From a virus, in IMG/VR virus record IMGVR_UViG_3300014839_000005, positions 1-64,000 of that record: DNA of 64,000 nt; one strand, given 5' to 3'. The number at the start of each line of letters is the position of its first letter. The stretch's first letter is position 1. Position numbers and translations under genes: made by a program. Below, in pieces: positions 4,876 through 64,000 of this stretch. The notes below the pieces were generated by a model that saw only the letters and a list, made by a program, of their open reading frames with translations, was not told the DNA's origin and ran no database searches.

Positions 4876-5679
4876 CTATTTTGTAAACTCAAAAGCGTAT
4901 GAGTGTTTATGTTTATTTTTCTTACTTCTTTTTCCTCCAGCAAAGTAATTTTCCCTCGGTGTATACGTGGTATCAGGCCCATAATGCTTGACTATTCCAC
5001 GATTAGGAAGTGGGGGAGTCCCAAATCCCATTCTTCTTTGATTCCAGTCATCAACTCCTTCTCCATATAACTCATCACTGAAACCGTTGCTGAGAGGATA
5101 TGATGGCGTGGTGGGAAGATTTACCGCTTTCAATTCGAGGATTTTTGCCCTTATCTTTTTATCCTCTTCATCTTCATCGGTTTCCCATTTGATATTATCA
5201 AAACGACGTTTGTTCTGATAATCGTAAAATGAGATAGACAGCAATCCTGCCTTGTTGAAAATGCCTCGGATAAGATAAGATTCGTTTCTATTCATTCTTT
5301 CAATTGACTGAGTCTCATCCTGTCCTGAAGGAGAAACTCCCATATCGACATGGGAGTGTCCCCAGAACTTCGCCTTGCTTAAATCGGCTTCTCTGTTATG
5401 AGTCATCAGCCATTCAGCCATCAATGTTTCACCTTCGGGGGAGATTTCACACGTGGCTCCTGCAGCTTCAGAGTGTTTGGGATAAAAGATATCCCTGATA
5501 ACGTATGTATTGTTTTCAAGTTCGTCTACAAAACCAAATACGCCGACTTCATGAGGATGAAGATCGGCAATAGCAGTCAACCATTTCAAGGCATTACCTG
5601 TAACCCTGATTGTAGGTGCTGTTATTTTAATTGGTTCGAGAGTTGTGTAAGTTGTTTGTTTAGCTGGTTCTGGCTTCAT
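4876..5679 (-). CDS. JAB/MPN+ metallopeptidase
   Basis: N-terminal HEVG Glu and HSH-x7-S-x2-D motif (WGHSHVDMGVSPSGQD). Confidence 0.88.
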   Translation of the reverse strand: MKPEPAKQTTYTTLEPIKITAPTIRVTGNALKWLTAIADLHPHEVGVFGFVDELENNTYVIRDIFYPKHSEAAGATCEISPEGETLMAEWLMTHNREADLSKAKFWGHSHVDMGVSPSGQDETQSIERMNRNESYLIRGIFNKAGLLSISFYDYQNKRRFDNIKWETDEDEEDKKIRAKILELKAVNLPTTPSYPLSNGFSDELYGEGVDDWNQRRMGFGTPPLPNRGIVKHYGPDTTYTPRENYFAGGKRSKKNKHKHSYAFEFTK

Positions 5680-45587: not shown

Positions 45588-45660
45588 TAAAAAAAGTCAA
45601 GCTTTTATTTTTGCCACATTTTATGTATTTTCATTGTATACTATATTAATTAGGAGTTTT

Positions 45661-48600: not shown

Positions 48601-51600
48601 GAAACTGGAGATATGCTTCCTCCGCCGGCACCATCTTTTGTTTGGAATAAACAAATAGCAATGATGCAAGGTGCTGGAATTAATGTCGTTCAAAAGGGAA
48701 AACAACTTAATCTTAAACCTATTACTGATGAAGAGATAAAAGATTTATCTAATGGTAAATTAGAGAATCCAACAGATACATATAGAAAAAAAGACCTTGC
48801 TCCTATTAAGGGTGGATTATTCGATCCTGTTAAAGCTGGTGGTATGCAAGGTGAACATTATACACATTTTGAACTTCCCGAAAAGGTGCTTAATCCTATT
48901 ACCGCTACCGCCGCGTCTACTATGCTTGATCTTACTTTAGATGGCCTTGAAGATATTATTAATGGGAAACAATTTGTTGACCAGGATTCTGGAAAACTTG
49001 TAAAGCCTGGAACGCCCAATTCTTTTTCAGGCGGTCCTGCTGTTGAAAAATTATTAAGTCAAATCAATGTTAATAAGGAACTAGAACAACTTGAAAATGA
49101 TAGTAAAGTAATTACAAATAAAACACAATTGAATAAGATTCATAGAAAAATCAGATATTTTAAATCCTTACAACAAAACAAAATGAATCCAACTGATTAC
49201 ATGATAAAAAATGTATTAGTTGTTCCATCAAAATTCAGACCAATGTTTACTATGGGTACTGACAATACAGTAATTATGTCGGATGTGAATGATTTATATC
49301 AACAAACTGCTTATACTGCTGAAGCTCTTAAGGATTTAAAAGATACCTTAAATGAAACAATTAAAGATGATAATATAAAACATATTCAACTTGCTGAGAG
49401 TAGAGGACAGTTATATCAAGATGTTAAAGCCCTTGCCGGATTAAGAGAACCAACAGCATTTTTACATAGAAGTAAGAATAAAAAAGGCTTTGTTGCTCAA
49501 ATAGATGGTGGAAAAAAGCAAACTAAAGAAGGTTTTTTCCAGGATAAGGTTATTGAGAAAAGACAAGACTTGGTTGGACGTTCAACTATTATTCTTAATC
49601 CAGAACTTGGTGGAGATCAAATTGGAATTCCCAAATTAATGGCAAATAAAATTTTTCAGCCATTTATAATGCAAAAATTAGTAAGTTGGGGATATAATCC
49701 TCTTGAGGCACAAAAACAAATTGAAGATGATACTCCTGTATTTCAAAGAGCACGTCAAGTAGTATCTGATGAACGATTAGTTATAGCTAATAGGGCCCCT
49801 TCTTTACACCGTTGGAATATGACCGCATTTAAACCTATTCTTACCGACGGCAAATCAATAGAAGTACCAGCAACATCGATACATCAAAATTTCAATGGCG
49901 ACTTTGATGGCGACTGTTTTCAAATTCATGTTCCTATAGGTGTTAAAGCTCTTGAAGAAGCTAAGAAAATGACACCATCATCTAGTATGTTAAAAACTGG
50001 ATTTGACACCGTCCTGAATAAACCTGATTTAGATATGGTAGTTGGAAGTTGGCTTATGTCGCAGGGTAGAGGCGGAAAGGCTATTAATTTAAAATATGAT
50101 TCTATTGATAAAGCAAGACAGGATTTTAAGCAGAATAAATTTACTTATGGTGACACTATTACCGTAGATGGAATTAAAGCTCCATTTGGTCTGCATGAGA
50201 TTAATTCAGTTCTTCCTGAAGATGTTAGAAAATATGATATTGAGTTAACTGGAAAAAATATTGATAATTGGATTAAAGATACCACGTTAAAACACTCTGG
50301 AAACATGGGATTAACTTTAGCTGATAAAATTAAAGATATTGGTAATAATTATTCTACTGCTTATGGATACAGTCTTGGATTAAATGATGTTAGGACTGTG
50401 AGAGATATTCGAGATCCATTATTGGTTGAAGCTAATAGTAAAATGGATAAAAAAAATCCTTTTAGTATTATCAAAGAAATTGCTAATGTAAAAGATAAAA
50501 TGATTAAATTACTTCCTGGAAGATTAAATCCCGACAATCCACTTGTGATTGCGGCTTCATCTGGTGGTGGTAGGGGATATGAAAATTCATCTCAAATAGT
50601 GGGTATGCCAGGAATAGTACTTGATGCTGATGATAGGCCAATTCCGATGCCTATTACAAAGTCTTATTCAGAAGGTCTGGATACTTCTGCTTATTGGGCT
50701 GCATCACATGGGGCAAGAGGTGCTAATATTAAAAAATCAATTCAGTCGTACAAACCTGGATGGATGACAAAAGATTTGATGAATTCAATTTATGACACAA
50801 GAATTCATCATGATATTCCAGTTGATACTGAAGGATTGGAATATAGCATTGATAATAGAAAACATGTTATGAATCGTTATTTGGCAAAAGATATAAAAGA
50901 TAGTCAAGGTAAAATTATAGCAAAACGAAATGATATCGTTGATGGAGATTTGATTAGTAAATTAAACAAAATGAAAATTAATAGTATTTTTGTTCAGTCT
51001 CCATTAACAGACCCAACTCCTGGAGATGGTATATCAAGTTGGTCATATGGAGTTGAAAATGATGGAAAGCGTTTAAAATCTGGAGATCATATTGGTGTTA
51101 TGAGCGCACACACTATTACAGAGCCATCACTTAATATGTCTATGAAAGCGTTCCATAGTGGCGGCGCTATGACTGGAACAACAGTAAATACCAAAGGTTC
51201 GGTATTTGATGCATTGGACAGAACCCTTAGATTCACTCAGGCTGTTCCTGATAAAGCTACAATGTCTACTGGTGATTCAAAAATTAAAAGTATTGAAAAA
51301 TCATCTATTGGCGGTTGGGATGTTGTTCTGGAACATAATGATGGTAGAGAAGAAACTAGATATATTGAACCAAACAATACTCCTATTATTAAAGTTGGAG
51401 ATAAGGTTAAAAAGGGCGATTTACTTTCTACTGGTAATGTGTCAATGCATGATGTACTTAAATATAAAGGAATGAAGGAAACGCAAAAATTTCTTGTTGA
51501 TGAACTTGACAAATTGAATGAAGGAAAACTAGATAGAAGAAATATTGAAGTTCTTGTACGTGGTATTGCAAATACTACAAGAGTGATGAATCCAGGCGAT

Positions 51601-52008
51601 AGTGGGTATGTTGCTGGAGATACAGTTCCATTAACTACTATTAATGATTTTAATAAGAATCTCATAACCGAAAAGGATGTAGAGGAAACTGAAGGTATGA
51701 GATTGAATAAACCTTATGCTGGATTTGATATTGGAATAAAACTTGATAAGTCCGCTATTAAACATTTACAGAAAAAAGGTATTAAAAGAATAGAAGTAAC
51801 AAGAAATCCTATTATTCATGATCCATTTCTTGCCCCAGCTGGGATTGGCGGAAAAATAGCCTCTGCAAGTGAAGACTGGATCGCAAGAATGGCGCATAAT
51901 AGAATTGAAGCAGTTCTCAAAGAGGGTGCTACCCAAGGATGGAAAAGTTCTTTTGATGATAAAAATAAGAATCATCCGATTTCATTATTAGTTATGAATA
52001 AAATGTAA
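45661..52008 (+). CDS. single-chain two-barrel DNA-dependent RNA polymerase (beta fused to beta')
   Basis: beta motifs DKISGLHGNK, KLEHKVDHK, GGKNLGRMEVGAL; beta' motifs GRSTI, NRAPSLHR, NGDFDGD (49894-49914), HGAR, EPSLNMSMKAFHSGG; start re-set to 45661 (AGGAG SD). Confidence 0.93.
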   Translation: MAIPSHQDILKKLSDLDTSTRSNVLMNETIKNTVGKILSSVENPNIKLQVNDIWYKQKYDNDDIAAQQSVRNKHQNWTDDIRADVSLIDKATGKIIDRNKDLKITSVPKLTPRNTYLIGGNEYSFTKQSRLKPGVYTRRQENGEISSFFNVDKTIDFDRGFNNNFKLNFNPERKTFTMGYGSKNIPLYNALKAVDIKDEDLMDKWGKDVVEANRQAYEKHEFRDQAKLYEAIFGKAAPDTMTHDQLKKEIKDRLFATKLSSETTKLTLGKEYDGVNKDVLLDASKKIIDIHKGETEGDDRESLLYKSFYDIEDHARENLVKKSKNIIGSLIYKLDKTKNINKSISSGFFDPYVIGTITKNMLSSPPSQTNIMSMIGDGNKVTVMGEGGIGNENAVTNQTRQLSNSEAGFIDPLHTPEGGNIGVTNHLTIGTIKVGNDIYNSFLKLNGEKVLYRPVDTHPLNIAFPDQYDLSSKKPEPLSNKIKVLNHGKFKEVKPEEVDAIMASHVNMFDHSANMIPFLDSIQPNRGLTASKMQEQALTLKFRDKPLFNLINEKGQSLNENLGRVSPTPRSPVDGEVVAINPNLITLQDKRGNKVKVQLYNNFSLNAEGFIHNEPVVKIGDKVTKDQLLADNNNTKNGQIALGANLKVAYMPYKGYNYEDSAIMSESAAKKLTSEHIYDFSAKKSANGHFSKNKFRAYYPEIINTKQAAKLDSDGVIHPGQEVDHGDVLIAHLERKAPTADDIALGRLEKQLRRDMANKAVTWDNDHKGVVTSVAKHGNTVTVSVKTEEPLKIADKISGLHGNKHIISKIIPDHEMPFNPKTGEYMDLTMSPIGVSNRINTSQLLEAAAGKIATKTGKQYEVRNFTQSDNTERVLNDLKKNDLSDKDILVDPQSGQPFKNPIMNGVSHILKLEHKVDHKFSARYRDGHDSNEQAITGGEEGGKNLGRMEVGALLARGATENLKEMFNIKGQKNNEYWKALETGDMLPPPAPSFVWNKQIAMMQGAGINVVQKGKQLNLKPITDEEIKDLSNGKLENPTDTYRKKDLAPIKGGLFDPVKAGGMQGEHYTHFELPEKVLNPITATAASTMLDLTLDGLEDIINGKQFVDQDSGKLVKPGTPNSFSGGPAVEKLLSQINVNKELEQLENDSKVITNKTQLNKIHRKIRYFKSLQQNKMNPTDYMIKNVLVVPSKFRPMFTMGTDNTVIMSDVNDLYQQTAYTAEALKDLKDTLNETIKDDNIKHIQLAESRGQLYQDVKALAGLREPTAFLHRSKNKKGFVAQIDGGKKQTKEGFFQDKVIEKRQDLVGRSTIILNPELGGDQIGIPKLMANKIFQPFIMQKLVSWGYNPLEAQKQIEDDTPVFQRARQVVSDERLVIANRAPSLHRWNMTAFKPILTDGKSIEVPATSIHQNFNGDFDGDCFQIHVPIGVKALEEAKKMTPSSSMLKTGFDTVLNKPDLDMVVGSWLMSQGRGGKAINLKYDSIDKARQDFKQNKFTYGDTITVDGIKAPFGLHEINSVLPEDVRKYDIELTGKNIDNWIKDTTLKHSGNMGLTLADKIKDIGNNYSTAYGYSLGLNDVRTVRDIRDPLLVEANSKMDKKNPFSIIKEIANVKDKMIKLLPGRLNPDNPLVIAASSGGGRGYENSSQIVGMPGIVLDADDRPIPMPITKSYSEGLDTSAYWAASHGARGANIKKSIQSYKPGWMTKDLMNSIYDTRIHHDIPVDTEGLEYSIDNRKHVMNRYLAKDIKDSQGKIIAKRNDIVDGDLISKLNKMKINSIFVQSPLTDPTPGDGISSWSYGVENDGKRLKSGDHIGVMSAHTITEPSLNMSMKAFHSGGAMTGTTVNTKGSVFDALDRTLRFTQAVPDKATMSTGDSKIKSIEKSSIGGWDVVLEHNDGREETRYIEPNNTPIIKVGDKVKKGDLLSTGNVSMHDVLKYKGMKETQKFLVDELDKLNEGKLDRRNIEVLVRGIANTTRVMNPGDSGYVAGDTVPLTTINDFNKNLITEKDVEETEGMRLNKPYAGFDIGIKLDKSAIKHLQKKGIKRIEVTRNPIIHDPFLAPAGIGGKIASASEDWIARMAHNRIEAVLKEGATQGWKSSFDDKNKNHPISLLVMNKM

Positions 52009-52131: not shown

Positions 52132-52602
52132 ATGAATGCTGAATTAGGTAATATTGCAGCTGCTCCAATTAAAGGAATGAAAAATATTGTTCCCAAAGTC
52201 GGCAAATTTATCGAACATCATGGTGAAAATGTAATTGAAGGAGCCCATAGTGTTATTGAAGGTATTCATAATTTAAAGGAATCTGCTGATGATAAAATGA
52301 ATAAAATATCTGAATATTCTTTTATGGATGAACTGGAAAAAGTAGCAAAAAAATCTCATTTTGAAGTATTGAAAAAAAATAAAGTCCCCTTAAATGATGA
52401 AGAGCGTAAGAAGGTAATGGATCGAGATGCTGTATGGCATCAAGGTCCCAATGGAGCACCTTCTCCAGCTGTATGGAAATCAATAAATAAGAAGACTGGT
52501 AAAACAACTTTTGTAACGCATACGCACAGAGCTTTTAATACGGCTCCAACAGTTGAAGGAGCTATTGGCAGGTTTCATAAATTTATTAAAGGAACCGCTT
52601 AG
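52132..52602 (+). CDS. leader-motif family protein, motif internal
   Basis: MNKISEYSFMDELEKVAKK in mid-protein. Confidence 0.7.
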   Translation: MNAELGNIAAAPIKGMKNIVPKVGKFIEHHGENVIEGAHSVIEGIHNLKESADDKMNKISEYSFMDELEKVAKKSHFEVLKKNKVPLNDEERKKVMDRDAVWHQGPNGAPSPAVWKSINKKTGKTTFVTHTHRAFNTAPTVEGAIGRFHKFIKGTA

Positions 52603-52637
52603 AAGACTTATATTATAAATATTGGAGGATTAAAAAA

Positions 52638-52979
52638 ATGAATTTAGAAAAAATAGCAAACGACGCATTTGTTGATGAATTAAAAAAGATTGCAAGTGAT
52701 AAGTCTCCACATGTTTCTCATACATCATCAATGTATGCGCCAATAAAAGCTTCTGGTAAAGGTGGAAAATGGGGAGCAATTCTTGGTGGCGGTCTTACTG
52801 GAATTCTTGGTCATCAAGGTCTTAAACTTGCTAAAATAACGCCTGAAAATAAAGCTTACTTTCCAATTCTTATAGCATCAATACTTGGTGGCTCCTTATA
52901 TGGTGGATCGAAAGGTGCATATGTTGGAGCCGCAATGGGTGGCGCTGAAAAAGTTACATCTCATTTAAAAAATGATTAG
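52638..52979 (+). CDS. leader-motif family protein with glycine-zipper cargo
   Basis: MNLEKIANDAFVDELKKIA; GAILGGGLTGILG, ASILGGSLYGG. Confidence 0.75.
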   Translation: MNLEKIANDAFVDELKKIASDKSPHVSHTSSMYAPIKASGKGGKWGAILGGGLTGILGHQGLKLAKITPENKAYFPILIASILGGSLYGGSKGAYVGAAMGGAEKVTSHLKND

Positions 52980-52990
52980 GAAAACAATAA

Positions 52991-53479
52991 ATGGATTTAA
53001 TAAAAATAGCAAACAACGCATTTATTGATGAATTGGAGAAAATAGCAATACCAGCTTTTTTACAACATCCATTTCCAGCTTCATTAGAAGAAGCTAAAGC
53101 TATTAAATATTTAGGAAGATATTTTTCTCCTAAGCATCCACTAATTAAAGATTTAATTTCTTCTGGTAATGAATCTATTAATATGAATAAAAGATTATCT
53201 AATAATGGATTAATTGAATTACAACATCCTGATTTAAATGGGAAATTAGATAGATTAATTAAGCGACATGAATTAGCACATTATTTAAGAGATAAAAATT
53301 CAGGATTTAAGGGTGATGAATTATATAATACTCGATTAAAAAGATTTAAAGAAGAATTTATAGCAGAACTTTCGGCAACAAAAAGAATTCCAGAATATAA
53401 AAATAAATTAAAACGATATATTCATTCTTTAGGAGTTGGTGTTTATAGAGCTTTATTTAACAATGCTGGAATTAAATAA
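52991..53479 (+). CDS. leader-motif family protein with HExxH (zincin-like) cargo
   Basis: MDLIKIANNAFIDELEKIA; RHELAHY...EEFIAE. Confidence 0.72.
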   Translation: MDLIKIANNAFIDELEKIAIPAFLQHPFPASLEEAKAIKYLGRYFSPKHPLIKDLISSGNESINMNKRLSNNGLIELQHPDLNGKLDRLIKRHELAHYLRDKNSGFKGDELYNTRLKRFKEEFIAELSATKRIPEYKNKLKRYIHSLGVGVYRALFNNAGIK

Positions 53480-53554
53480 TGTCACAAGATTTTGCACCAG
53501 GTCTTCCCTCAAAATCACGCTGAGAAGGTTACATCTCATTTAAAGAATGATTAG
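53479..53554 (+). pseudogene. chimeric remnant: ligase-type 5' end joined to the 3' end of a 52638-type gene
   Basis: MSQDFAPGLPSKSR* then 37 nt matching 52943-52979 at 34/37. Confidence 0.75.
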
Positions 53555-53564
53555 AGTAATAATT

Positions 53565-54839
53565 ATGAATTTAGAAAAAATAAAAAATAACGCTTTTATT
53601 GATGAGATAGAAAAAATATCTTCTCCATTTCGTGCTTCAGATTTTGATAATATTATGAGAGAGGGGCAACGAGCTGGTAATGCATTGGCGGGAAAAATAT
53701 ATGGTGGAATTGGTGGAGGTATTGGTGGTTTAATATTAGGTGGTAAGATTGATAGAAAAATGTATGGCAAAAATAAAAGGCAAAATAAACAAGAGTCTTA
53801 TAAAGATTATAATAAGCGTAATAAAAATAATCAACGTATAGCAATTGAGCTTTTATCAGCAATTGGCGGGGCTGTTGGTGGAGCAAAAATTGGTGGAAAA
53901 ATTCCGTCATTAATTGATAATGGAATAAATAAATTTTTAACTACAAAAAAAATACCTGTTGCAACTAAAGGATTAATAGGCGGTACTGTTATTGGTTCAG
54001 GTGTTGGGGCTAGTAGTGGTTTAAAATTATCGAATCAATATTATGATGAAAGTCATGAAAAGTATATTAAAAGACGTAATAAAAATATTTTAAGAAATGC
54101 AATTATTGGTGGTTCTCTTGGTGCTCCAGTGGGATATTTTGGCACTAAAAAGATAAGGGAATTTATAGATATTTTGGACAAACCATATTCTGGTTATTCT
54201 GAAAGTGCTTATAAGAGTGAAAATATTCATGATCCTTATTTGAGGTTGCCATTTATTAAAACATCTGCATTAAATCCAATATTAAAAGGTGGACTTATTG
54301 GTGCTGGAATAGGGGGATCATTAGGATCTATTAGTGGGTTAGTAAAACCAAGAAAACGACTCAAAGAAGAAAAATTAAAAGATTGGAATAAAAGAAAAGA
54401 TAAAAAATGGTATCATTATGCATTACAACATTCAATTTTACCAGTTGTAGCATATGGTGGTTTGGGATCTTATCTTGGTGCAGCTTTTTCTACTGAAGAC
54501 GCAAAGAAAAAAATGAAAGCAGCAACATTGCCATTTAAAAATGCATTCAAAGAATATAAAAGACGTAAAGCAATGAACCCCAATATGGAATATGGAATAT
54601 TTGCGAATGCAAAAGATAAACAAAGCGCTAAAAAAATATTTACAGCAGAACTATTAAAAACTCATCCTGATAAATTCAGAAATCCTATTGTAAAAAATTA
54701 TGCACATATTCAAACTTTAAAATTGTTAAATATTTGGGATAATTATAAGAAAAGTGGACAATTTAATAAATTGCCTAATATGTATAAAGTAAATATATTA
54801 AAAAATGTACTTGATAAAATTAAAAAGGTTAAAATTTAA
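53565..54839 (+). CDS. leader-motif family protein: three glycine-zipper modules plus a C-terminal J-domain-like segment
   Basis: MNLEKIKNNAFIDEIEKIS; repeated GxxxG hairpins; KKIF..ELLKTHPDK; start re-set to 53565. Confidence 0.7.
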   Translation: MNLEKIKNNAFIDEIEKISSPFRASDFDNIMREGQRAGNALAGKIYGGIGGGIGGLILGGKIDRKMYGKNKRQNKQESYKDYNKRNKNNQRIAIELLSAIGGAVGGAKIGGKIPSLIDNGINKFLTTKKIPVATKGLIGGTVIGSGVGASSGLKLSNQYYDESHEKYIKRRNKNILRNAIIGGSLGAPVGYFGTKKIREFIDILDKPYSGYSESAYKSENIHDPYLRLPFIKTSALNPILKGGLIGAGIGGSLGSISGLVKPRKRLKEEKLKDWNKRKDKKWYHYALQHSILPVVAYGGLGSYLGAAFSTEDAKKKMKAATLPFKNAFKEYKRRKAMNPNMEYGIFANAKDKQSAKKIFTAELLKTHPDKFRNPIVKNYAHIQTLKLLNIWDNYKKSGQFNKLPNMYKVNILKNVLDKIKKVKI

Positions 54840-54856
54840 ATAAGGAATTATTAATT

Positions 54857-55693
54857 ATGGATTTTATTAAAATTACTGAAGAAGCTTTTATAAATGAATT
54901 AGAAAAAATAGCAAAAAAGCGTGATAAGATAATGGGTGTTGGGGCTATTGGTACTGGTGCTATTACTTTAAATAAAGCAAAATCATTACTTACTGGAAGA
55001 AAAACTTTATATCACGGCACAACTTCTAAAGCTTATTCTAAAATTTTAAAAGAAGGAATTAAACCTCCTAATAAGAAAAAAGCCTTAAATACAGATGTTT
55101 TTAAACAATGGAATAAAAATTTACATAAAAATTCAGTTAAATTTGTTTATCTTTCTCCTGATAAAAAAATTGCAAGACAATTTGCTGTAAGGGGAACGTT
55201 AGGCGGAACATTACAAATAAATAAAGATATAGCAAAAGATATAGTCAACAACAATAGTGCTATTAAGAATGTTTTGAACAGAAATGTTAAATTAATAATT
55301 AATAGTATGAATCCATTTTATAATAAAAATATTGTTAAAGCTAACATTCCTATTTGGAATAAAAAATATACAGCAATACCAAATCCAGAAGCATCATTAC
55401 AAGATTTTACTTCTTTATTGAATGATGAAGGTGGTGAAAAAGTAAACTCTATATTAAAATTTTTAAGTAATCATCAAGTAAAAGAATTTAATAAAAAATA
55501 TCCAGCTTTTAAATCAATTTCTCCAGAATATATTAAAGGTTCAAAAAAATATATACCATTTTATAAAGACTTGGGTAAATATATTAAAGCAAAACCAGGA
55601 TCTTTTGCTAAAGGTTTAGGTTTAGCCGCAGCTGGAACTGGCATCGCTGGTTTAGGTATTAAACAATTATTGAAGAAAAAAGAAGAAAAATAA
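54857..55693 (+). CDS. leader-motif family protein with ADP-ribosyltransferase-like cargo
   Basis: MDFIKITEEAFINELEKIA; LYHGT...ILKEGI.P...VYLSPD...A..FA; terminal GxxxG helices. Confidence 0.65.
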   Translation: MDFIKITEEAFINELEKIAKKRDKIMGVGAIGTGAITLNKAKSLLTGRKTLYHGTTSKAYSKILKEGIKPPNKKKALNTDVFKQWNKNLHKNSVKFVYLSPDKKIARQFAVRGTLGGTLQINKDIAKDIVNNNSAIKNVLNRNVKLIINSMNPFYNKNIVKANIPIWNKKYTAIPNPEASLQDFTSLLNDEGGEKVNSILKFLSNHQVKEFNKKYPAFKSISPEYIKGSKKYIPFYKDLGKYIKAKPGSFAKGLGLAAAGTGIAGLGIKQLLKKKEEK

Positions 55694-56295
55694 TGTCTAA
55701 CAATTACGCTCCAGGCCTTCCTTCTAAATCAAAATTTGATCCTATTGATCAAAGTGATGATAAAATAATTTTAATGAGAAAAAAATGTGTATTGTGTAAT
55801 AAGATAAAATTAATAAAAGATTTTCATATAAATAAACAAAATATAGATAATCGTCATAGTTATTGTAAAAAATGTCATAAAAAATGGCGAGATAATTATT
55901 ATTTAAAAAATAAAGAACAAATAAATAAAAAACATATACAATATAATCATAATAATAAAAAACAAATTGCTGAAAATAATAAAAAATGGAGGCAAAAAAA
56001 TAAAGTTAAATATCAAGATCAAAAATTGAAATATAAATATAATATTACATTAGATAAAAAAAATCAAATGATTGTAGAACAAAGTGGAAGATGTGCTTGT
56101 TGTGGTGATGTTTTGGGAGTTAATCCTAAAAATATTTGTGTTGATCATGATCATATTTATAATATTATAAGAAAAATTTTATGTATGAAATGCAATATTG
56201 TTTTAGGATTAACAAAAGAAAATATTGATATTATTTTAAAATTATTAGAATATATTAAATATTGTAATAAATTAAAGGAGCAATATGGAAAATAA
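55693..56295 (+). CDS. EndoVII-type HNH endonuclease whose first ~25 aa copy the ligase N-terminus
   Basis: CACCG...VDHDH...RKILC.KCN; N-terminus MSNNYAPGLPSK. Confidence 0.8.
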   Translation: MSNNYAPGLPSKSKFDPIDQSDDKIILMRKKCVLCNKIKLIKDFHINKQNIDNRHSYCKKCHKKWRDNYYLKNKEQINKKHIQYNHNNKKQIAENNKKWRQKNKVKYQDQKLKYKYNITLDKKNQMIVEQSGRCACCGDVLGVNPKNICVDHDHIYNIIRKILCMKCNIVLGLTKENIDIILKLLEYIKYCNKLKEQYGK

Positions 56296-57676
56296 AGAAT
56301 TTGCTCCTGGACTTCCTGATAAAAATCTGTTTGACAAAATTAATCAAAATGGTGAAACAAGATTAGTTATTCAAAAACATTTAGCTACTACCCCTCATTA
56401 TGATTTAAGATTGCAAGATAAAAATATTGCACATTCATGGGTTATTAAATCACTTCCTGGAGAACAAACCAGAATATTAGCTATACGACAACCCACTCAT
56501 ACTACAAAATATATGGATTTTGAAGGAAAAATAGAATCTGGATATGGTAAAGGAACTGTTAAAAAAGTTTATGATAAAGATGTTCATGTCTTATATGCTA
56601 ATGATAAGAAAATAAAGATGGTGTTGCCTGAAGGCGAATTCACCATGTTAAAACCTGAAAAGTTTAAAGATACTGATTGGTTAATGATACGAAATAAACC
56701 TATTAAAAATCCTATAACTGATAAACCTCAATATAAAGTAATAACCAAACCTTTAGATTTTTCTGATAAAAATAAAGTTCTTCAGCCTAAAGTCGATGGA
56801 GCCAATGCTATATTTGATTTAAGATCTGAGGCGATGAATAGAATTTATTCATATCGTACTAGCAAAAAGACAGGAATGCCAATAGATCACTCGCATCAAG
56901 TTCCAGGATTACGAGATCTTGAAATCCCAAAATCTTTAGATGGAACTGTTCTTCGTGGAGAATTATATGCTACAAAGAATGGAAAGCCATTACCAGCTGA
57001 GACTATAGGTGGAATACTTAATTCTAAACTAGATGAAAGTTTAAAAAAACAAAAAGAACTTGGAAAATTAAAACCATATATTTTTGATATTGTTAAATAC
57101 AAAGGTAAAGATGTTTCAGAAGAACCATATGCCGCTAAATATGATTTATTAAAATCAGTTCAAAAGAAATTACCACAACTAAGAGTTGCTGAGACGGCAT
57201 TTACTTCAAGTGCCAAACAAAAACTTGTTGATGCTATCAAATCGGGTAATCATCCAAAAACTGTTGAAGGTGTTATTGAGTGGGATCTTACAAAATCAAC
57301 AGGAGATCCTAAAAAACTTAAATTCAGAGATACTCATGATGTCTATATTAGGGAAATCTTTCCGGCGATTAGTGGCGTTAGTGGTAAAGAAAAAGACGAA
57401 GCAGGTGGATTTAAATATAGTTGGACTAAAAATGGCCCAATTGTAGGTAATGTTGGAACTGGTTTTGATAAATTAAAACGACAAGATATGTGGAAAAATA
57501 AAAATAATTATGTAGGAAAAGTTGCAAGAGTTAAATCTCAACAAAAATATAAATCTGGCAGTTTAAGGGCTCCTAGTTTTTATTCTTTAGATATAGAAAA
57601 AAATTTAAATTTAGAAAAAATATCACAATTTGCATTTTTAGATGAAATAAAAAACTTGTTAATTTTAAATGAATAA
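56285..57676 (+). CDS. LigD-like 3'-phosphoesterase + ATP-dependent DNA ligase (PE-NTase-OB), no polymerase domain
   Basis: IQKH...HYDLRL...HSW (PE); PKVDG, GEL, YIFDI, EGVI, K.K; VGNVGTGF (OB). Confidence 0.85.
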   Translation: MENKEFAPGLPDKNLFDKINQNGETRLVIQKHLATTPHYDLRLQDKNIAHSWVIKSLPGEQTRILAIRQPTHTTKYMDFEGKIESGYGKGTVKKVYDKDVHVLYANDKKIKMVLPEGEFTMLKPEKFKDTDWLMIRNKPIKNPITDKPQYKVITKPLDFSDKNKVLQPKVDGANAIFDLRSEAMNRIYSYRTSKKTGMPIDHSHQVPGLRDLEIPKSLDGTVLRGELYATKNGKPLPAETIGGILNSKLDESLKKQKELGKLKPYIFDIVKYKGKDVSEEPYAAKYDLLKSVQKKLPQLRVAETAFTSSAKQKLVDAIKSGNHPKTVEGVIEWDLTKSTGDPKKLKFRDTHDVYIREIFPAISGVSGKEKDEAGGFKYSWTKNGPIVGNVGTGFDKLKRQDMWKNKNNYVGKVARVKSQQKYKSGSLRAPSFYSLDIEKNLNLEKISQFAFLDEIKNLLILNE

Positions 57677-58094
57677 CAAATTTAAAAAATGTTCTATATG
57701 TAAGATAGAAAAATCATTAAATAATTTTTATACTGATCCTACTCATAAAGATGGGCATCAATCGAGGTGTAAACAATGTGATAATAAGAATGGAAAAGTA
57801 TATAAATCTAAACATAAAATAGAAAGAATGAATTATCATTTAAAATGGAAATATAATATTTCATTAGAACAAAAAAATAGAATGATTATAGACCAAAATA
57901 GTAAATGCGCATCGTGTGGAGATATGCTTGGTATTAATGCAAAAAATATTTGTATAGATCATAATCATATTACAAAAATAGTTAGAAAAATACTATGTCA
58001 AAAATGTAATGCCGCATTAGGATTTATGGAAGAAAATGTAGAAAAAATATTAAAATTAGCAGAATATGCTAAATATTGTAACCAGATAAAATAG
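57669..58094 (+). CDS. EndoVII-type HNH endonuclease, paralog of 55693-56295
   Basis: CASCG...IDHNH...RKILCQKCN. Confidence 0.8.
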   Translation: MNNKFKKCSICKIEKSLNNFYTDPTHKDGHQSRCKQCDNKNGKVYKSKHKIERMNYHLKWKYNISLEQKNRMIIDQNSKCASCGDMLGINAKNICIDHNHITKIVRKILCQKCNAALGFMEENVEKILKLAEYAKYCNQIK

Positions 58095-58103
58095 AAAATT
58101 ACA

Positions 58104-59489
58104 ATGGAAAACAATCCTATCTTCTACGTCCCTGTTCCCGTCATTTGCGGCGGACAGATTGTTCAGTATAAAACTGAAGGTAATTATTATTATGTAAAAA
58201 TAAGTGATACGCACCCAATGAATGGAGCTATAGCATGTTCTTTAATCTATCCTCCAGGCGCAAAAGCTAATTATGTTGTAGGAGATAGGGTAAAAGTTCT
58301 TGTTATGATGATGTTTGGTGGCGTTGAAATGAAAATACAGGGAGTAATGCGTAGTGCAAAGCATTACATTCTTGGTCTTAATGATAAAGGTCTAATCTTT
58401 CCTCTAGAAGAAGGTCCGTCATATTTAAGAAATGAAAAAGATCATTCATTTTTAAATAGAGATAATGATGCCGGCCTTTTAGCAACTGATGATGGATGTG
58501 CTATTATTACAACTCGTGGAGCTATCAAAACTATACATAGCCCCTTTGGTAATGGTATATATGAAAATATGAAACAGGATATGTATCAAAATTATCATCG
58601 GATAATTTCACATAACGAACCATATCAATCAAGAGAATATTTTGGGCTTTTTAAGGGATTAGATGCTGAAGATAAAAAATCGAGAACAGATCCTAAACGT
58701 TCTCTTTTATGTTATAAAAGATTTGTTACTCAAACAATGGATCCGTCCAGTTGGGTATCTACCTGTGAAGGGTCCTGGAATCCTTGGGTAGGGGCAAATA
58801 ATAGTGTTGAAGAAATAATTAAAGGTAGTAATATATTATATACCAAAATTATTCATTCTGGCGCTACAACTACAGCAAAAAGATTGACCGTGGAAGCCGG
58901 CGAGGAAGGCCCTACATTTTATAATTTCAGAATAGATAAGATGCTGACTGGAGAAAAAAGCATTCCTCTTGGAGCTGGAGCTTCTCCGGCGGTGTCAGGA
59001 AATACATTTAAATGCAGTATATCAGATAGTGGAGAGGTGGATGTACGAGCGGCTGCCAAGGGTATACCTTTAACAAATTTTTCAGGAGTACAATTAAAAA
59101 TTGACACTGATGGAAATCTTATTATCAATGCTAAAGGGGCTATTACTATATCTCATGGGGATGCAGATAAAAGTACATGTAGTATTGAATTTGATGGTAA
59201 GGGTGGAATCGATGTTAAGGCTTTGGGAGGATTTAAAGTTAATGGACAACCCGTTGCCAGTGCTACATTTATAGATTTTTGGTTACAATATGCGGCAGCT
59301 ATGTATACGTGTGCTACACCAGGATCTCCAGCGGTAATAAATCCTGCCGCCATACCATATATAACACAAAATTCTATTCCATTGACTAAGGATGCGAGTG
59401 CCGGAGGTTTTACGACAGCTGGATTGCCAGTTGCTCCTCCAATTACTGGATTACAACCATTTGCAGATTATCATCAGACAACAGCTTAA
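58104..59489 (+). CDS. putative baseplate spike/hub protein (gpV/gp5-like)
   Basis: N-terminal OB-like strands ending VGDRVKVL; C-terminal short beta-strand repeats (LKIDTDGNLIINAKGAITI...GGIDVKA). Confidence 0.42.
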   Translation: MENNPIFYVPVPVICGGQIVQYKTEGNYYYVKISDTHPMNGAIACSLIYPPGAKANYVVGDRVKVLVMMMFGGVEMKIQGVMRSAKHYILGLNDKGLIFPLEEGPSYLRNEKDHSFLNRDNDAGLLATDDGCAIITTRGAIKTIHSPFGNGIYENMKQDMYQNYHRIISHNEPYQSREYFGLFKGLDAEDKKSRTDPKRSLLCYKRFVTQTMDPSSWVSTCEGSWNPWVGANNSVEEIIKGSNILYTKIIHSGATTTAKRLTVEAGEEGPTFYNFRIDKMLTGEKSIPLGAGASPAVSGNTFKCSISDSGEVDVRAAAKGIPLTNFSGVQLKIDTDGNLIINAKGAITISHGDADKSTCSIEFDGKGGIDVKALGGFKVNGQPVASATFIDFWLQYAAAMYTCATPGSPAVINPAAIPYITQNSIPLTKDASAGGFTTAGLPVAPPITGLQPFADYHQTTA

Positions 59490-59586
59490 ATATTTTGATT
59501 GATTAGCTCAATTAACGTATATTATAATTAATCAGTATAGTTCCAGATAATCATTAAATTTTGTATTATACAAAAGAGGTAACAAA

Positions 59587-61836
59587 ATGATAAAGTTACA
59601 AGATGCAGTTTTAAGAAAGCCCACCTTTGAAAAAACAGCCACATACGAACTTCCTCAAGATGTAACAAACTGGAACTCTGAAATATTGGAGAAGTTCTTT
59701 GAAGAAGTGAATTATCTTCCAAAAGATATCAATACTGAAATAGTAGTCAATAGTATTGATGAGAACAAGGGATATGCAAAAGGTTCAGTTGTGGTTTGGT
59801 ATGGAAACCGCAAGTTAAATTTTCCTATTATTGTAAAGGATTTTCAACTCTATCCTTTTGATGTTTATATTACTGAAAAAGATGGTAAGTTTAAATATAA
59901 TAATGCTACAGAAGTCAATGTTAAAACATATTTAATGTCAAATGAAATTGGCAAAATTGAAAATATGTATGATGCTGCTATGGGTGCCAATATTAAGACT
60001 CCTGGTAATATTTCTCCTAAACGACATATCAATCTTTCTGACGACTATAATATTGATTGGATTTCCGCTTATCCTAATTTCACCAAGATGTCTTCAGATT
60101 GGCGGGAAGAAGATTTTAAGCACCTGAAAAATGTCCTTGAAAAGAATGCAGATATCGCTAGTTCATTTGTTGATACTACAGGGGACTTGGTTAATAATAT
60201 TATTAATCTTAATCGTGGTAAACAAGCAATTCCAAGAGATAAAGCACAAGGCAAACTTGACCTTAATAATGTTGTTGATGCAAAACAGGCACTTACTGTT
60301 ATTGATGCCGAAATGTTTGATACGGCAAAATTGATTCCCATTAAACCTCCAGCTGTTTGTGAATTAAGATTATATCAATATCCGTCCATGGAAGATTTCA
60401 TGGATAGAGGCGATAGTGAACTGTTAAGATTTTCTGCATCTAAAACTGGAAAACCTATTACTGGCGTAGTTCTTGATTATAAGACAATTGAAACTTCTGG
60501 AAATTGCCCTATTGAATGCGCCTCTTCTGTAACTTCAAAAGATGCTGATCCCATAGAACAAGCAAGAGCGGTTCGTAATCGTAGACCTCAGATATTTATC
60601 TGTTCTGAAGGTAAATATTATTCAACAGACGATGACTGGGGAAAATCAGGTATTTGTTTTTATGGATCCAATATTTTATCAATACCTGGTATGGTAGATA
60701 AAATTGTTGAAAGAATAGCTAATAAAACCACAAATGATTATCTCAGATTTAATAAAGATAATCATGGTAATGGTGATGATAAGATTTTTCATCGTAATCT
60801 TGAATTGCGCCAAGGTAAAGAAAATGTTGAAAATGGTGACGCAATCAAAAGCCATTATCAAGGTATCATTCCATGGCCGGCAACTGTATATCCGAACTTT
60901 GCAAGTCAAAATAAAGAATTACTTCTGATTTATGGAAATAATGATACTTATGAATGTGTCAAAATTTCTGGTCCATTTAAGAGATATAGGGTTAACGGGA
61001 CCACCGCATATGCTTGTTCAGAAATGGCTCTTATTCCTGCAAGAATTGCTGTCATTCAGCAAGTTGGTTCAGTAACTGATCCAGTCTATAAAATGATTGC
61101 AGGAGAAAGTAAAAAAGTATATTTAATTCCAGAAAATACTCTTGTTATCAATATGGATTTTATGGAGAGATTGAATAAAGATGACTTTATGAGTCCAGCA
61201 AAGCCTATTCAGAAGATTTATGAAGAAGCTTCAATTCTGAAGGTGGCAATAGATCTTGGACAAGATGGATATCGTATTTATGGAAGTCCTGTAAAACCTC
61301 TTCAGAAGATAGCGCATTTTGATGATAATACATGTCTTAATACTAAAGATGCTATTAATGTATTAAAAATTCTTGGTATGGAGAAAACAGCCGCCGAAAA
61401 AGCTCTTAAAACTGTTCTTATTAAAAATGCTGAATCTCCTGGTTCATCCATTATGGTATATGGAGTCAGGAATGATTATATTAATCCTAAACTTTATGAT
61501 GGTATTGAGAAACAAGCCAGAGTAAGAGATATATACCGTCAATTAGCTGCTGAGTTGAAAATAGATTTAATTAAAGAAGCTAGTGTTATAAGTGATCCTG
61601 AAGCTGTAGATGTTATGTTAAGTTTAAATTTTGTTAATGAAGATAATCTTAATGAATATGTTGATCAGGTTCATATTATTAAAAAGGTTATCGGCAAACT
61701 TTCAGCAATGTTGGTAGCTTCAAGGATGGGTCTTAGTGATATCGATGAGACTGCTACAAAGAAAGCTATTGATGGGTTAGACAATGTCGTCAAGGGACTT
61801 GAGAATATTAAATTATCAATATCTAATCAAGGATAA
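59587..61836 (+). CDS. large probable virion protein with recurring K-x-A/S sites
   Basis: 749 aa; FEKTA, FTKMS, ILKVA, LQKIA, MEKTA, IEKQA, LIKEA. Confidence 0.55.
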   Translation: MIKLQDAVLRKPTFEKTATYELPQDVTNWNSEILEKFFEEVNYLPKDINTEIVVNSIDENKGYAKGSVVVWYGNRKLNFPIIVKDFQLYPFDVYITEKDGKFKYNNATEVNVKTYLMSNEIGKIENMYDAAMGANIKTPGNISPKRHINLSDDYNIDWISAYPNFTKMSSDWREEDFKHLKNVLEKNADIASSFVDTTGDLVNNIINLNRGKQAIPRDKAQGKLDLNNVVDAKQALTVIDAEMFDTAKLIPIKPPAVCELRLYQYPSMEDFMDRGDSELLRFSASKTGKPITGVVLDYKTIETSGNCPIECASSVTSKDADPIEQARAVRNRRPQIFICSEGKYYSTDDDWGKSGICFYGSNILSIPGMVDKIVERIANKTTNDYLRFNKDNHGNGDDKIFHRNLELRQGKENVENGDAIKSHYQGIIPWPATVYPNFASQNKELLLIYGNNDTYECVKISGPFKRYRVNGTTAYACSEMALIPARIAVIQQVGSVTDPVYKMIAGESKKVYLIPENTLVINMDFMERLNKDDFMSPAKPIQKIYEEASILKVAIDLGQDGYRIYGSPVKPLQKIAHFDDNTCLNTKDAINVLKILGMEKTAAEKALKTVLIKNAESPGSSIMVYGVRNDYINPKLYDGIEKQARVRDIYRQLAAELKIDLIKEASVISDPEAVDVMLSLNFVNEDNLNEYVDQVHIIKKVIGKLSAMLVASRMGLSDIDETATKKAIDGLDNVVKGLENIKLSISNQG

Positions 61837-61839
61837 ATT

Positions 61840-62094
61840 ATGATTGATTTAGCAAAAATTTCTCAAGAAGCATTTATAGACGAATTGCAAAAAATAGCAA
61901 TGTCTGAAAGTGTTATAACAAAAGCTATTAATGCATCACACAATAAGGCTATGAGTCTTTTAGGACAATCACCAATAAGTGCATCAAATATTTCTGCAGC
62001 TGCAAAAAAAATAAGACAATCATCTAATATGAGATTAGGTCTTGCTAAAAGACGCGATAATGTTGGATATAGTTTTCTTAAAAAAGGAAGGTAA
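61840..62094 (+). CDS. leader-motif family protein
   Basis: MIDLAKISQEAFIDELQKIA. Confidence 0.72.
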   Translation: MIDLAKISQEAFIDELQKIAMSESVITKAINASHNKAMSLLGQSPISASNISAAAKKIRQSSNMRLGLAKRRDNVGYSFLKKGR

Positions 62095-62096
62095 TT

Positions 62097-62543
62097 ATGA
62101 TTGATTTACAAAAAATTGCTGAAAGTGCATTTGTGAATGAACTTGAAAAAATATCAAAACTTTCACACACACTTGAACCTGACGCTTATACACCTACTAT
62201 TAAACATTATGTTAAAAATATCCAAAATATTGAAAAGAAAGAAAAATCTGAATGGAATAAATTAAAAAACAAATATAAACCAGAAATAAGATCTAATAGA
62301 TTGGCTGCATTAGGTGGAGCCCTTGGAGGTGGTGGAGCTGGTTTTGCTATAGGAAAATTATTTGGTCTTCCCGTTTCAGGAACCATTGGTGGTAGTTTAC
62401 TTGGCGCTGGTGGGGCTGGTGGTATTATGAGTTATATTAACGAATTAAAAAGACCATCTTTTGGAAAAGAAATGTCTTCACATACAGAACGATATGGAGA
62501 AGGCGCTCCTAATATCAAAGATTTGCTAATAAATAGAGAATAA
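62097..62543 (+). CDS. leader-motif family protein with glycine-zipper cargo
   Basis: MIDLQKIAESAFVNELEKIS; GGALGGGGAG...GGSLLGAGGAGG. Confidence 0.75.
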   Translation: MIDLQKIAESAFVNELEKISKLSHTLEPDAYTPTIKHYVKNIQNIEKKEKSEWNKLKNKYKPEIRSNRLAALGGALGGGGAGFAIGKLFGLPVSGTIGGSLLGAGGAGGIMSYINELKRPSFGKEMSSHTERYGEGAPNIKDLLINRE

Positions 62544-62544
62544 G

Positions 62545-62745
62545 ATGAATTGGCTTCAAAAAATAGCTGAAACTGCTTTTGATGATGAAATGCAAAAAAT
62601 TCTTCAAGCTGAAGGTATTGATAAAATAATGGATCATAGAGCTTTAACTAGAGTAACGAATATGAATCGCTCTGGTACTAATGTTGGAATTAATGATGAA
62701 TACAACCCGACAGAATCAGAAAGTACATATGGACAATCGTTTTGA
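62545..62745 (+). CDS. leader-motif family protein (short)
   Basis: MNWLQKIAETAFDDEMQKIL. Confidence 0.68.
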   Translation: MNWLQKIAETAFDDEMQKILQAEGIDKIMDHRALTRVTNMNRSGTNVGINDEYNPTESESTYGQSF

Positions 62746-63145
62746 AGAAATAACGAAATACGCTTTTGATGAAGAGTTAAAAAAAATAGCAGACTTTTAT
62801 ACTGATATGTTAGCTACTTATCCTGATGAAGAAGAGGAACCTGAATACGAGGAAGAATATCCAGAACAAGCCGCTTCTTATGACTCCCAACGACCTAATC
62901 CAATTCCTAGTCTATTTGCTGGTGCAGGAACTGGAACTGCTTTAGCATCTGGTCTTGGAATGTTGAGTAATAATATATTGGGCAATCCTATTTCTCAAAA
63001 TTTTGCCAGAAATGCTATTATTGGCGGTTTAATGGGTGGATTAGGTGCTGGTATTCCAATTTTGATAAATCATTTTTCGTCATCAAATAATAATGAGGAA
63101 AATGATGTTGCCGCTCAACCCATCAATTCAATAATGGAAAATTAA
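62729..63145 (+). CDS. leader-motif family protein, acidic linker plus glycine zipper
   Basis: MDNRFEEITKYAFDEELKKIA; start re-set to 62729. Confidence 0.7.
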   Translation: MDNRFEEITKYAFDEELKKIADFYTDMLATYPDEEEEPEYEEEYPEQAASYDSQRPNPIPSLFAGAGTGTALASGLGMLSNNILGNPISQNFARNAIIGGLMGGLGAGIPILINHFSSSNNNEENDVAAQPINSIMEN

Positions 63146-63571
63146 ATGCATTCTATTACACATAAAGCTTTTATTAATGAGTTGGAAAAAATATCTGCAG
63201 CCGGTATAGTGGGAGATATATTAGCAGCTTCGTTGTTAGGTCAATTAGCTATGACTGGTGCTCAACATACTAAAGGAATAAAAGAAGCACTTAAAGCGGG
63301 TGCTACACTAAAACATGCTTTTAGTGCTCCTCCTTTGCCTATTGGAAAAGAATGGAAATTTGTACCATTAAATAGAGTAAATAATCAATTAAAATTACAA
63401 GAAAATCAATTAGCATCTATGACTAAAGAGAAATCTTCTTATGAACATTTTTTAGATGAACAAAGAAAACGAATGCAGACAATTGCTATGCCTACTGGTG
63501 CCGTTGTTTCTATAGCAGCAGAACGAAAACATGATCGTGAACATATACATAAAACACCAATGAAAGGATAA
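63146..63571 (+). CDS. leader-motif family protein
   Basis: MHSITHKAFINELEKISA. Confidence 0.72.
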   Translation: MHSITHKAFINELEKISAAGIVGDILAASLLGQLAMTGAQHTKGIKEALKAGATLKHAFSAPPLPIGKEWKFVPLNRVNNQLKLQENQLASMTKEKSSYEHFLDEQRKRMQTIAMPTGAVVSIAAERKHDREHIHKTPMKG

Positions 63572-63574
63572 ACA

Positions 63575-64000
63575 ATGAATAAAGATACTATGCAAAAAAT
63601 TGCAGAAGAAGCATTTATTGATGAGCTGGAAAAAATTTCTGGTAAGAAAAGCGAAGTTGCTGGAACAGCAATTGGTGTAGGTGGATCCATTGGAGGGTAT
63701 GCGCTGACTAAAGGTGCAATTAAACGAGGAATGACACCAGAATATGCTAAGGCAATTAATGAATCTCTTATAAAAAATAAAACTATTGGAAAAGTTATGG
63801 GATCTTTAGCGCATTCACAAATGAAACATCCAGGTAAATGGTTAGCCGGTGGATTAGCTCTCAGTGCTATTCCTATCGCAGGTGGGTTAATGCAGAAAGC
63901 TAAATCAAAAGAAGAAATGGATAAACAAAACAAACAAACAATATCTAATTTAGCGCTTGGTCCCTACAATCTTGGTAAACGTATTAAAGCCTCTCTTGCT
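63575..64000 (+). CDS. leader-motif family protein, truncated by the window end
   Basis: MNKDTMQKIAEEAFIDELEKISG...GTAIGVGGSIGG; open to position 64000. Confidence 0.72.
   Translation, partial: MNKDTMQKIAEEAFIDELEKISGKKSEVAGTAIGVGGSIGGYALTKGAIKRGMTPEYAKAINESLIKNKTIGKVMGSLAHSQMKHPGKWLAGGLALSAIPIAGGLMQKAKSKEEMDKQNKQTISNLALGPYNLGKRIKASLA

Follow-up and report, generated by a model that had tools for sequence, protein, structure and literature searches.

The DNA examined here is a window of 64,000 nucleotides (nt), positions 1 to 64,000 of IMG/VR virus record IMGVR_UViG_3300014839_000005. It is the first half of a single 128.5-kb contig from an uncultured phage, and we extended the analysis over the whole contig. 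From 52 kb on, the plus strand holds tightly packed open reading frames (ORFs), and a peptide of about 19 residues, which we call the tag, recurs in a series of them. A first-pass annotation of the window had described twelve carriers of this tag, with the tag N-terminal in ten, internal in one (the ORF at 52132) and C-terminal in one (a DNA ligase). All twelve were located in these ORFs. The count itself was too low, since the whole contig carries 16 strong copies spread over 15 ORFs, together with several degenerate ones. Overall, the copies are confined to 52-81 kb, where they lie among the head genes, namely those for the large terminase subunit (TerL), a protease, an acidic scaffold-like ORF and the major capsid protein (MCP). 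Past the window, strong copies lie at contig nt 69201 (minus strand), 77938 and 78124 (both in one ORF) and 78258. Degenerate copies stand at contig nt 73940, 74146 and 76529, and another, near nt 81034, belongs to the scaffold-like ORF.

Alignment of the 16 copies gave the consensus x-L-x-K-I-[AST]-x-x-A-F-[IV]-[DN]-E-L-x-K-I-[AS], in which I, F and E are invariant. The hydrophobic moment of the peptide is that of a helix rather than a strand. Similarity among the tagged proteins breaks off directly after K-I-[AS]. A profile of the tag scored 24-37 bits on the 16 copies versus 8.4 bits for the best of 20 shuffles of the six-frame segments; this test is circular, the profile having been seeded by those same copies, and the scans of other collections given below are the independent checks. 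At the nucleotide level the conserved residues use synonymous codons freely: Ile is encoded by ATA 8 times and by ATT 8 times, Ala by GCA 7 times and by GCT 7 times, and Leu by four codons from two codon families. Because synonymous codons vary and the mean nucleotide identity between copies is only 68%, the tag is conserved at the protein level and not at the DNA level, which bears out the first-pass annotation on this point. In most tagged ORFs the ATG ahead of the tag is preceded, at a distance of 8-14 nt, by a Shine-Dalgarno-like site, and the gap from the preceding gene is 0-35 nt. Searches of the tagged ORFs against Pfam and PHROG returned no family that covers the tag region, and a literature text search found the motif strings in no paper; the mReC paper (PMC7481178) mentions neither the protease nor an N-terminal motif. 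The tag is not a named Pfam or PHROG family, nor, as far as that text search reached, is it named in the literature, as the first pass had also judged, although the general kind of system is known from phage T4.

The proteins behind the tag, referred to here as cargos, are unrelated to one another. When the tags were masked and the cargos compared pairwise, no pair matched by BLASTP at E<0.01, in agreement with the earlier description. The tagged proteins are mostly basic: the isoelectric point exceeds 9 in 14 of 16 tagged ORFs versus 48 of the 159 other genes (p = 1e-5). They are also highly variable between related phages. The closest relative, G001, shares 41-78% identity with our phage in the RNA polymerase, MCP, TerL, the protease and three proteins of 749, 461 and 329 aa, and 38% in the scaffold; among the 17 proteins with a full or degenerate tag, only one has a homologue there that could be detected. 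Tagged ORFs nevertheless stand in the same slots of G001, where the leader takes the variant form M-D-K-Q-A-L-L-E-Q-V-Y-E-E-S-F-x-D-E-L-x-K-I-[AS]. Judged by sequence, the cargos thus appear both basic and hypervariable between related phages, as T4-type internal proteins are. We also compared 73 tagged ORFs from IMG/VR with Pfam. Most had no domain, and the matches were to families of the cargo domains only: on a few ORFs, an SNF2 helicase, a C92 amidase, a GNAT domain, a glyoxalase fold or MazG. On our contig, two side observations concern single ORFs. A small basic segment of the type K-x-x-Q-x-R-x-x-F-A, which we take to resemble DUF3008-like phage domains, occurs both in the ORF with two tags (contig 77761-78255) and in a 125-aa ORF (73019-73396), and the tagged ORF at contig 78252-78524 matches Pfam DUF5661 (E 4e-6).

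The tags stand at three sites: after the fused RNA polymerase, after the 749-aa protein, and between TerL and the protease. TerL (contig 70742-72403) is at best about 25% identical to the TerL of any cultured phage. The protease is a 623-aa ORF at contig 78546-80417 that matches the PHROG head maturation protease (E 2.6e-7). We modelled its N-terminal domain (predicted local distance difference test, pLDDT, about 80-90) and compared the model with 48,161 chains. The best match was T4 gp21 (Z 8.9, root-mean-square deviation 3.0 over 129 residues), and the next were the proteases of varicella-zoster virus (VZV; Z 7.5), human cytomegalovirus and Kaposi's sarcoma-associated herpesvirus. This clear top match came from the exhaustive structural aligner only; Foldseek gave a weak match to gp21 (E 0.15), and a sequence profile of the protease searched against the PDB returned chance matches only. 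At the level of the modelled fold, the genome appears to encode a prohead protease of the gp21 family. After the protease gene comes the acidic scaffold-like ORF. A 166-aa ORF and a set of three decoration-like paralogues follow, and then a 339-aa protein whose homologue in Salmonella phage Arash is annotated as the MCP. The three paralogues (147, 168 and 233 aa) lie in tandem at contig 82036-83749, directly before the MCP gene; they have an N-terminal domain in common, two of them end in long Thr-rich or Ser/Pro-rich tails, and they are probably capsid decoration proteins.

The scaffold-like ORF carries a stretch that recalls the tag itself. In most tag-bearing relatives its centre reads G-R-[IV]-[MF]-A-[RH]-x-F-x-[DQ]-E-[LF]-x-K-[LI]-A, which is the core of the tag. 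The stretch is absent in Arash and Vibrio phage D181, both of which lack the tag, and it is degenerate in the tagless relative G002. Because the stretch is present in most tag-bearing relatives and absent or degenerate in tagless ones, the cargo tag looks like a copy of the scaffold motif.

A shorter part of the motif is also concentrated in the head genes. The sub-motif [DEQ][LIMF]xK[ILVM][AS] has 28 hits in the 47 genes at 52-87 kb and none in the other 128 genes. With the full tags masked, 8 hits remained versus 1.06 expected from shuffles (Poisson p = 1.5e-5), a result that is supportive and not independent, as the pattern was picked after the tags had been seen. The remaining hits include the scaffold-like ORF, the 166-aa ORF and a 329-aa core-like protein with three sites. 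In G001 the sub-motif is about 6 times denser in the head genes than in the rest. The 329-aa protein (contig 74839-75828; G001 5045-5866) has three [DE]-[ILMF]-x-K-[IVM]-[AS] sites, at residues 179, 194 and 219, and these fall on identical residues in both phages despite an overall identity of 44%. A looser form, L-E-K-x-A, is seen as I-D-K-L-S at residue 269, after the protease domain, and as L-E-K-V-A at residue 15 of the MCP. By analogy with T4, this distribution would match what is expected for the site of a maturation protease (PMC5694885). Among the MCP N-termini of the clade, x-K-x-A strings are nearly universal and sit in differing alignment columns, which gives a hint only; whether they mark a shared cleavage site at the MCP N-terminus is uncertain.

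To see how far the tag extends, we turned to other genomes and sequence libraries. The exact core A-F-x-D-E-L-x-K-I-A occurs in more than 117 stretches in IMG/VR, versus about 3 expected by chance according to our own estimate. Among the matches listed, most cores sit 2-12 residues past a start Met, and the most frequent spacing to the nearest Met in the viral matches listed is M-x6-A-F. The peptide is kept across contigs of widely differing composition. For comparison, the exact core was scanned across 596 Gb of bacterial and archaeal genomes, where the matches are mostly chance or unrelated internal parts of cellular proteins; by their flanking sequences, some read as transketolase-like, PhoU-like or actinobacterial PAC2-like. 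The first in-frame Met lies no more than 15 residues upstream in 65 of the 110 distinct viral matches listed; for the bacterial genomes the figure is 17 of 98 (Fisher p = 5e-10). One match of the bacterial scan stood apart: an Anaerolineales contig from a metagenome-assembled genome (CAZEQC010000003.1, L215, 115,798 bp) has four tags within 1.6 kb, and its leader M-I-D-F-x-A-F-S-D-E-L-V-K-I-A is the same as that of IMG/VR contig L076. L215 is probably a phage and may hint at a host.

We further searched a profile of 91 tags against 1.84 billion protein cluster representatives. This yielded 129 representatives at E <= 0.001 with a median length of 118 aa, and the core was inside the first 12 residues in 92 of 128 matches. 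At least two tags in one chain were present in 32 of the 129 representatives, often 55-65 residues apart, as expected if tags mark processing units. The library proteins P0004, P0011, P0012 and P0016 carry 3-4 tags per chain, with a regular spacing of about 57 residues in P0004, and multi-tag proteins of this kind may be cleavable arrays of small modules. Building a profile and counting copies per genome had been proposed in the first-pass annotation, and the count in near-complete relatives came to 2-11 each; our contig has 14 by the same measure, the highest seen. A word-indexed homologue search with the tag region returned only the query and one 78%-identical orthologue. Taken together, the tag is used by a large clade of uncultured tailed phages of 100-210 kb and is not private to this phage. 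This spread, the copied scaffold motif and the carriers beyond twelve had all been missed in the first pass.

The protease family accompanies the tag closely. It was present in 42 of 50 IMG/VR contigs picked solely for the exact 10-residue core, and in all 18 core-bearing contigs that are at least 90% complete. Members also exist in cultured phages, namely Arash, Vibrio phage D181, Bacillus phage G, Mycobacterium Bixzunavirus (I3) and Gordonia phage Pupper, and the Pupper member is annotated as a capsid maturation protease. In many relatives the protease gene is split by large in-frame inserts, after an invariant S-M-G (profile position about 158) or elsewhere. Interrupted or split matches were seen at L024:9995-12859 and L006:8906-11818 and in G009, G012, G013, G015, G022, G031, G032, G043, G047 and G055, and the L024 insert and the L006 N-terminus look like inteins (Hint-type sequence).

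The carriers inside the window, together with two neighbouring genes, are listed in Table 1.

Table 1. Tagged ORFs of the window and the genes directly upstream of the two tag clusters (window nt).
Feature	Coordinates	Strand	Tag	Remarks
2124-aa fused beta-beta' RNA polymerase	45634..52008	+	untagged	directly upstream of first tag cluster; NADFDGD-type motif
156-aa basic ORF	52132..52602	+	internal, nt 52294-52353 (aa 55-74)	no Pfam/PHROG family
113-aa ORF, Gly-zipper-rich cargo	52638..52979	+	N-terminal, nt 52641-52700	Shine-Dalgarno-like site upstream
162-aa ORF, HELAH string in cargo (putative metalloprotease)	52991..53479	+	N-terminal, nt 52994-53053	no Pfam match
424-aa ORF (alternative start 53547)	53565..54839	+	N-terminal, nt 53568-53627	no significant Pfam match
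278-aa ORF, ADP-ribosyltransferase-like cargo (lead only)	54857..55693	+	N-terminal, nt 54860-54919	
463-aa LigD-phosphoesterase and ATP-dependent DNA ligase	56285..57676	+	C-terminal, nt 57608-57667	Pfam LigD_N, DNA_ligase_A_M, OB
749-aa conserved head-module protein, portal-sized	59587..61836	+		directly upstream of second tag cluster; no Pfam/PHROG family
84-aa basic ORF	61840..62094	+	N-terminal, nt 61846-61905	
148-aa ORF, Gly-zipper cargo	62097..62543	+	N-terminal, nt 62103-62162	
66-aa acidic ORF	62545..62745	+	N-terminal, nt 62551-62610	
138-aa acidic ORF (frame open from 62681)	62729..63145	+	N-terminal, nt 62738-62797	
141-aa ORF	63146..63571	+	from first codon on, nt 63146-63202	
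147-aa ORF running past the window (end at contig nt 64018)	63575..64000	+	N-terminal, nt 63587-63646	

The functional labels that the first pass had attached to the cargos fared unequally. The ligase stood, with its LigD_N and ATP-ligase domains. The label of ADP-ribosyltransferase (ART) drew weak matches only: the YHGT region of the ORF at 54857 gives weak Pfam (PARP/Tpt1, E about 0.01) and PHROG matches, and its closest structures in the Atlas are ART folds throughout, with low TM scores. The HExxH and J-like (HPD) strings are visible and have no Pfam model behind them. The HPD string stands at the C-terminus of the 424-aa ORF, which also has Gly-zipper segments, and the C-terminal half of the 138-aa ORF is hydrophobic and Gly-rich. 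The sole cargo with a detectable homologue in G001 is that of the ORF at 63575.

The tagged ligase combines end healing (the LigD 3'-phosphoesterase) with sealing, which is unusual for a protein of phage origin and possibly carried in the virion. A ligase with 40% identity in relative G041 likewise ends tag-like, in AAFFNELERI, so the C-terminal tag is not an accident of the endonuclease VII genes that flank it. These two paralogous genes (55693-56295 and 57669-58094; Pfam E 4e-17 and 8e-19) overlap the ligase ends by a few bases, an arrangement reminiscent of homing endonucleases placed around a single cargo gene. The RNA polymerase, which borders the head module, has an orthologue with 63% identity at the same position in G001. 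The 749-aa protein has an orthologue with 47% identity there, and its homologues in other relatives lie 7-9 kb upstream of the protease. We did not adopt it as the portal: it has no significant BLAST or HMM match to the phage G portal or to Arash gp218, and its structure model has a mean pLDDT of 40.6. A parallel with the T4 order of portal, small core proteins and protease was dropped along with the portal call.

We lean, by a modest degree, towards reading the tag as a capsid-targeting and processing signal of the kind found in T4. The supporting lines are circumstantial: the site within the head module, the co-occurrence with the protease, the scaffold motif, the basic hypervariable cargo and the enrichment of the sub-motif. 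Under such a mechanism, the amphipathic helix of about 19 residues (core A-F-x-D-E-L-x-K-I-A) would mimic the conserved helix in the middle of the scaffold. A protein carrying the tag at its N-terminus, or less often internally or at its C-terminus, would be drawn into the scaffold core or procapsid during head assembly, where the prohead protease, with its T4 gp21/herpesvirus-assemblin fold, would cut within or just past the tag. The mostly basic cargo would then stay in the head with the DNA and exit with it at infection. Binding, packaging, the cleavage site and ejection are all steps that we infer. Two bonds are candidates for the cut: D-E|L, just past the invariant Glu, and the bond following K-I-A, the point at which conservation ends. 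The sharp end of conservation after K-I-[AS] would fit a K-x-A cut, which the first-pass annotation had favoured. All characterised gp21-family proteases cut after Glu (PMC5694885), and on that analogy a D-E|L cut seems at least as likely. The broader idea of head loading in that annotation is therefore supported in part: a portable protein-level tag stood, and its tie to the head module and to a gp21-fold protease family is circumstantial.

The closest known counterpart is the T4 capsid-targeting sequence (CTS), on which Mullaney and Black reportedly worked in 1996. This leader, MKTYQEFIAE, comprises 10 N-terminal residues of IPI-III and Alt, brings these proteins into the scaffold core and is then removed by gp21 (PMC3012670, PMC5694885, PMC8442874); the T4 internal proteins are basic and diverse and have only the CTS in common (PMC3012670, PMC8442874). 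The likeness to our phage is extensive. A short leader is common to unrelated, basic and hypervariable proteins encoded near head genes, a gp21-fold protease is encoded, and the tag is N-terminal in 10 of the 12 cases in the window. One cargo may be ART-like, a lead only, as Alt is in T4, and F-[IV]-[DN]-E in the tag of this genome recalls the F-I-A-E| end of the CTS. By eye, however, the two show no alignable similarity; only the F-I-x-E end is alike, and its x varies across the clade. The tag is also longer (about 19 residues versus 10), occurs internally, C-terminally and in tandem, recurs inside the scaffold-like protein, serves up to at least 15 clients per genome, and belongs to a distinct and uncultured phage lineage. 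It stands out through the breadth of its occurrence, its independence of position and its use in tandem, and through its apparent origin in a scaffold motif.

Other systems resemble it in part. In phiKZ, 201phi2-1 and SPN3US, head and ejection proteins carry propeptides that are cut by gp175/gp245 at (S/A/G)-x-E (PMC5694885). As would be the case here, a gp21-family protease acts at a short motif on many head-internal proteins of these phages; they further feature a protease that cuts itself C-terminally and paralogues with conserved N-termini. Their propeptides, in contrast, are mostly longer than 100 residues and family-specific, whereas here a nearly identical tag of about 19 residues is found across unrelated cargos. 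Encapsulins likewise use a short portable peptide at either end of the cargo, thought to dock inside an HK97-fold shell. They differ in being non-viral compartments, with no protease step and another consensus, while our locus has genes for TerL, protease, scaffold-like protein and MCP and genes of the tail region. In herpesviruses, the assemblin protease is fused to the scaffold, cleavage at the M- and R-sites falls between Ala and Ser, and the scaffold tail binds the MCP. Our protease has a related fold (VZV, Z 7.5), a long helical C-terminal extension and a semi-conserved x-[DE]-K-x-[AS] directly after the catalytic domain, and the candidate K-I-A cut would put Ala at P1. On the other hand, there is no sequence similarity, cargo tagging is not herpesviral, and Ala specificity here is a candidate only.

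Several observations weigh against a targeting signal. The T4 CTS offers no parallel for tags placed internally or at the C-terminus. The tag is absent from all five cultured phages with a related protease (Arash, D181, G, I3 and Pupper), and a tblastn search over 50,697 cultured phage records, which is insensitive for a query of 25 residues, found no tag. It is absent from the complete relative G002 as well. The tag therefore appears to be a derived feature of an uncultured sub-clade, and since the protease family works in the tagless G002 and Arash, the enzyme does not depend on the tag. The Gly-zipper and hydrophobic stretches of several cargos could belong to membrane proteins meant for the producing cell. 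In an alignment of MCPs, the L-E-K-V-A of ours falls outside the columns that hold E-K-x-A in more distant ones. Finally, the link to virion proteomics is weak. It runs through Arash gp217, a protein detected in Arash virions, to which one tagged SNF2 helicase shows 38% identity, and the study in question lists 116 virion proteins and allows for carry-over of abundant ones (PMC10585845). A predicted complex of the MCP, the protease domain and a tagged N-terminus of 45 residues, which scored 0.00 in a run made without controls, counts neither for nor against the signal.

The motif in scaffold-like and core-like proteins would fit a plain cleavage site equally well, and this leads to the first alternative, in which the motif is merely what the prohead protease recognises and cuts, and the tagged ORFs are expendable core or filler that is chopped and expelled with no targeting involved. 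T4 gp22, gp67 and gp68 are scaffold-core proteins that are chopped up and expelled in this way. The short sub-motif does recur in scaffold-like and core-like proteins and directly past the protease domain, proteins with 2-5 tags are known, and many of the tagged ORFs are short, with no domain that could be recognised. However, a bare site would rarely need about 19 conserved residues in the form of an amphipathic helix, the strong N-terminal preference recalls propeptide targeting, and enzymes such as the ligase, the ART-like protein, the SNF2 helicase, GNAT, MazG and the C92 amidase are implausible as filler. We consider this alternative unlikely. The amphipathic helix with its strictly conserved D, E and K, the copies at the N-terminus, inside and at the C-terminus, and the cargos with Gly-zipper or hydrophobic stretches would also suit a helix that docks on a partner outside the head, be it a chaperone, a membrane complex or a replication compartment, with the proximity to head genes reflecting co-regulation. 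Against such docking, the motif is, within the genome, otherwise confined to the scaffold-like protein and further proteins of the head module, and it co-occurs perfectly with the protease family in complete genomes; we think there is rather little chance that it is right. As a more specific candidate, the tag was considered as a substrate of a phage ubiquitin-like conjugation operon, through an invariant Lys, and this was rejected, an E1 homologue being present in 2 of 20 tag-bearing genomes.

The tag could alternatively be a degron or timing signal that exposes proteins to destruction by the head protease or a host protease, so that their activity is limited to one phase of infection. A conserved, exposed N-terminal helix on potentially harmful enzymes (ligase, ART-like protein, helicase) would make sense for this purpose. 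Nothing indicates a host protease, though, and a degron leaves the motif in scaffold and core proteins and the basic, hypervariable cargo unexplained, so that we regard it as very improbable. An explanation at the DNA level would make the shared stretch a recombination joint, a translation-initiation region or a similar element that moves with gene cassettes, and would leave the peptide itself without a function. It draws on the fact that tagged genes sit in swappable slots where cargos are replaced between relatives. This explanation is close to refuted: nucleotide identity averages 68% with free synonymous variation, the peptide stays constant across contigs of very different composition, and some copies are internal or C-terminal.

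Beyond the T4-like targeting signal that we prefer, a bolder proposal is that the tag is a clade-wide, position-independent virion zip code copying an assembly helix of the scaffold. We put this forward tentatively and with more doubt than confidence. Any protein, or any string of modules joined by tags, would then be co-assembled into the procapsid core and afterwards freed by the head protease.

A phage's first weapons against host defences are the proteins that it packs in its head and injects along with its DNA. To our knowledge, sequence hardly ever reveals such head-packed proteins, T4 and the phiKZ group excepted. A searchable tag would mark them in a large, uncultured and mostly unannotated clade of phages; the tag labels 2-16 proteins in each genome, and among cluster representatives it has at least 129 significant matches. 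If the zip-code reading is true, the injected proteome of hundreds of uncultured large phages would become readable from sequence. Examples of injected proteins would be a ligase with 3'-phosphoesterase, an ART-like enzyme, SNF2 helicases, GNAT, MazG and many Gly-zipper proteins. The 19-residue peptide would in that case be a ready packaging handle. T4 engineering has already profited from a portable capsid-loading tag, to which this peptide would add an unrelated second. The link to the scaffold, moreover, suggests how capsid-targeting signals may originate, namely by the copying of a piece of the scaffold.

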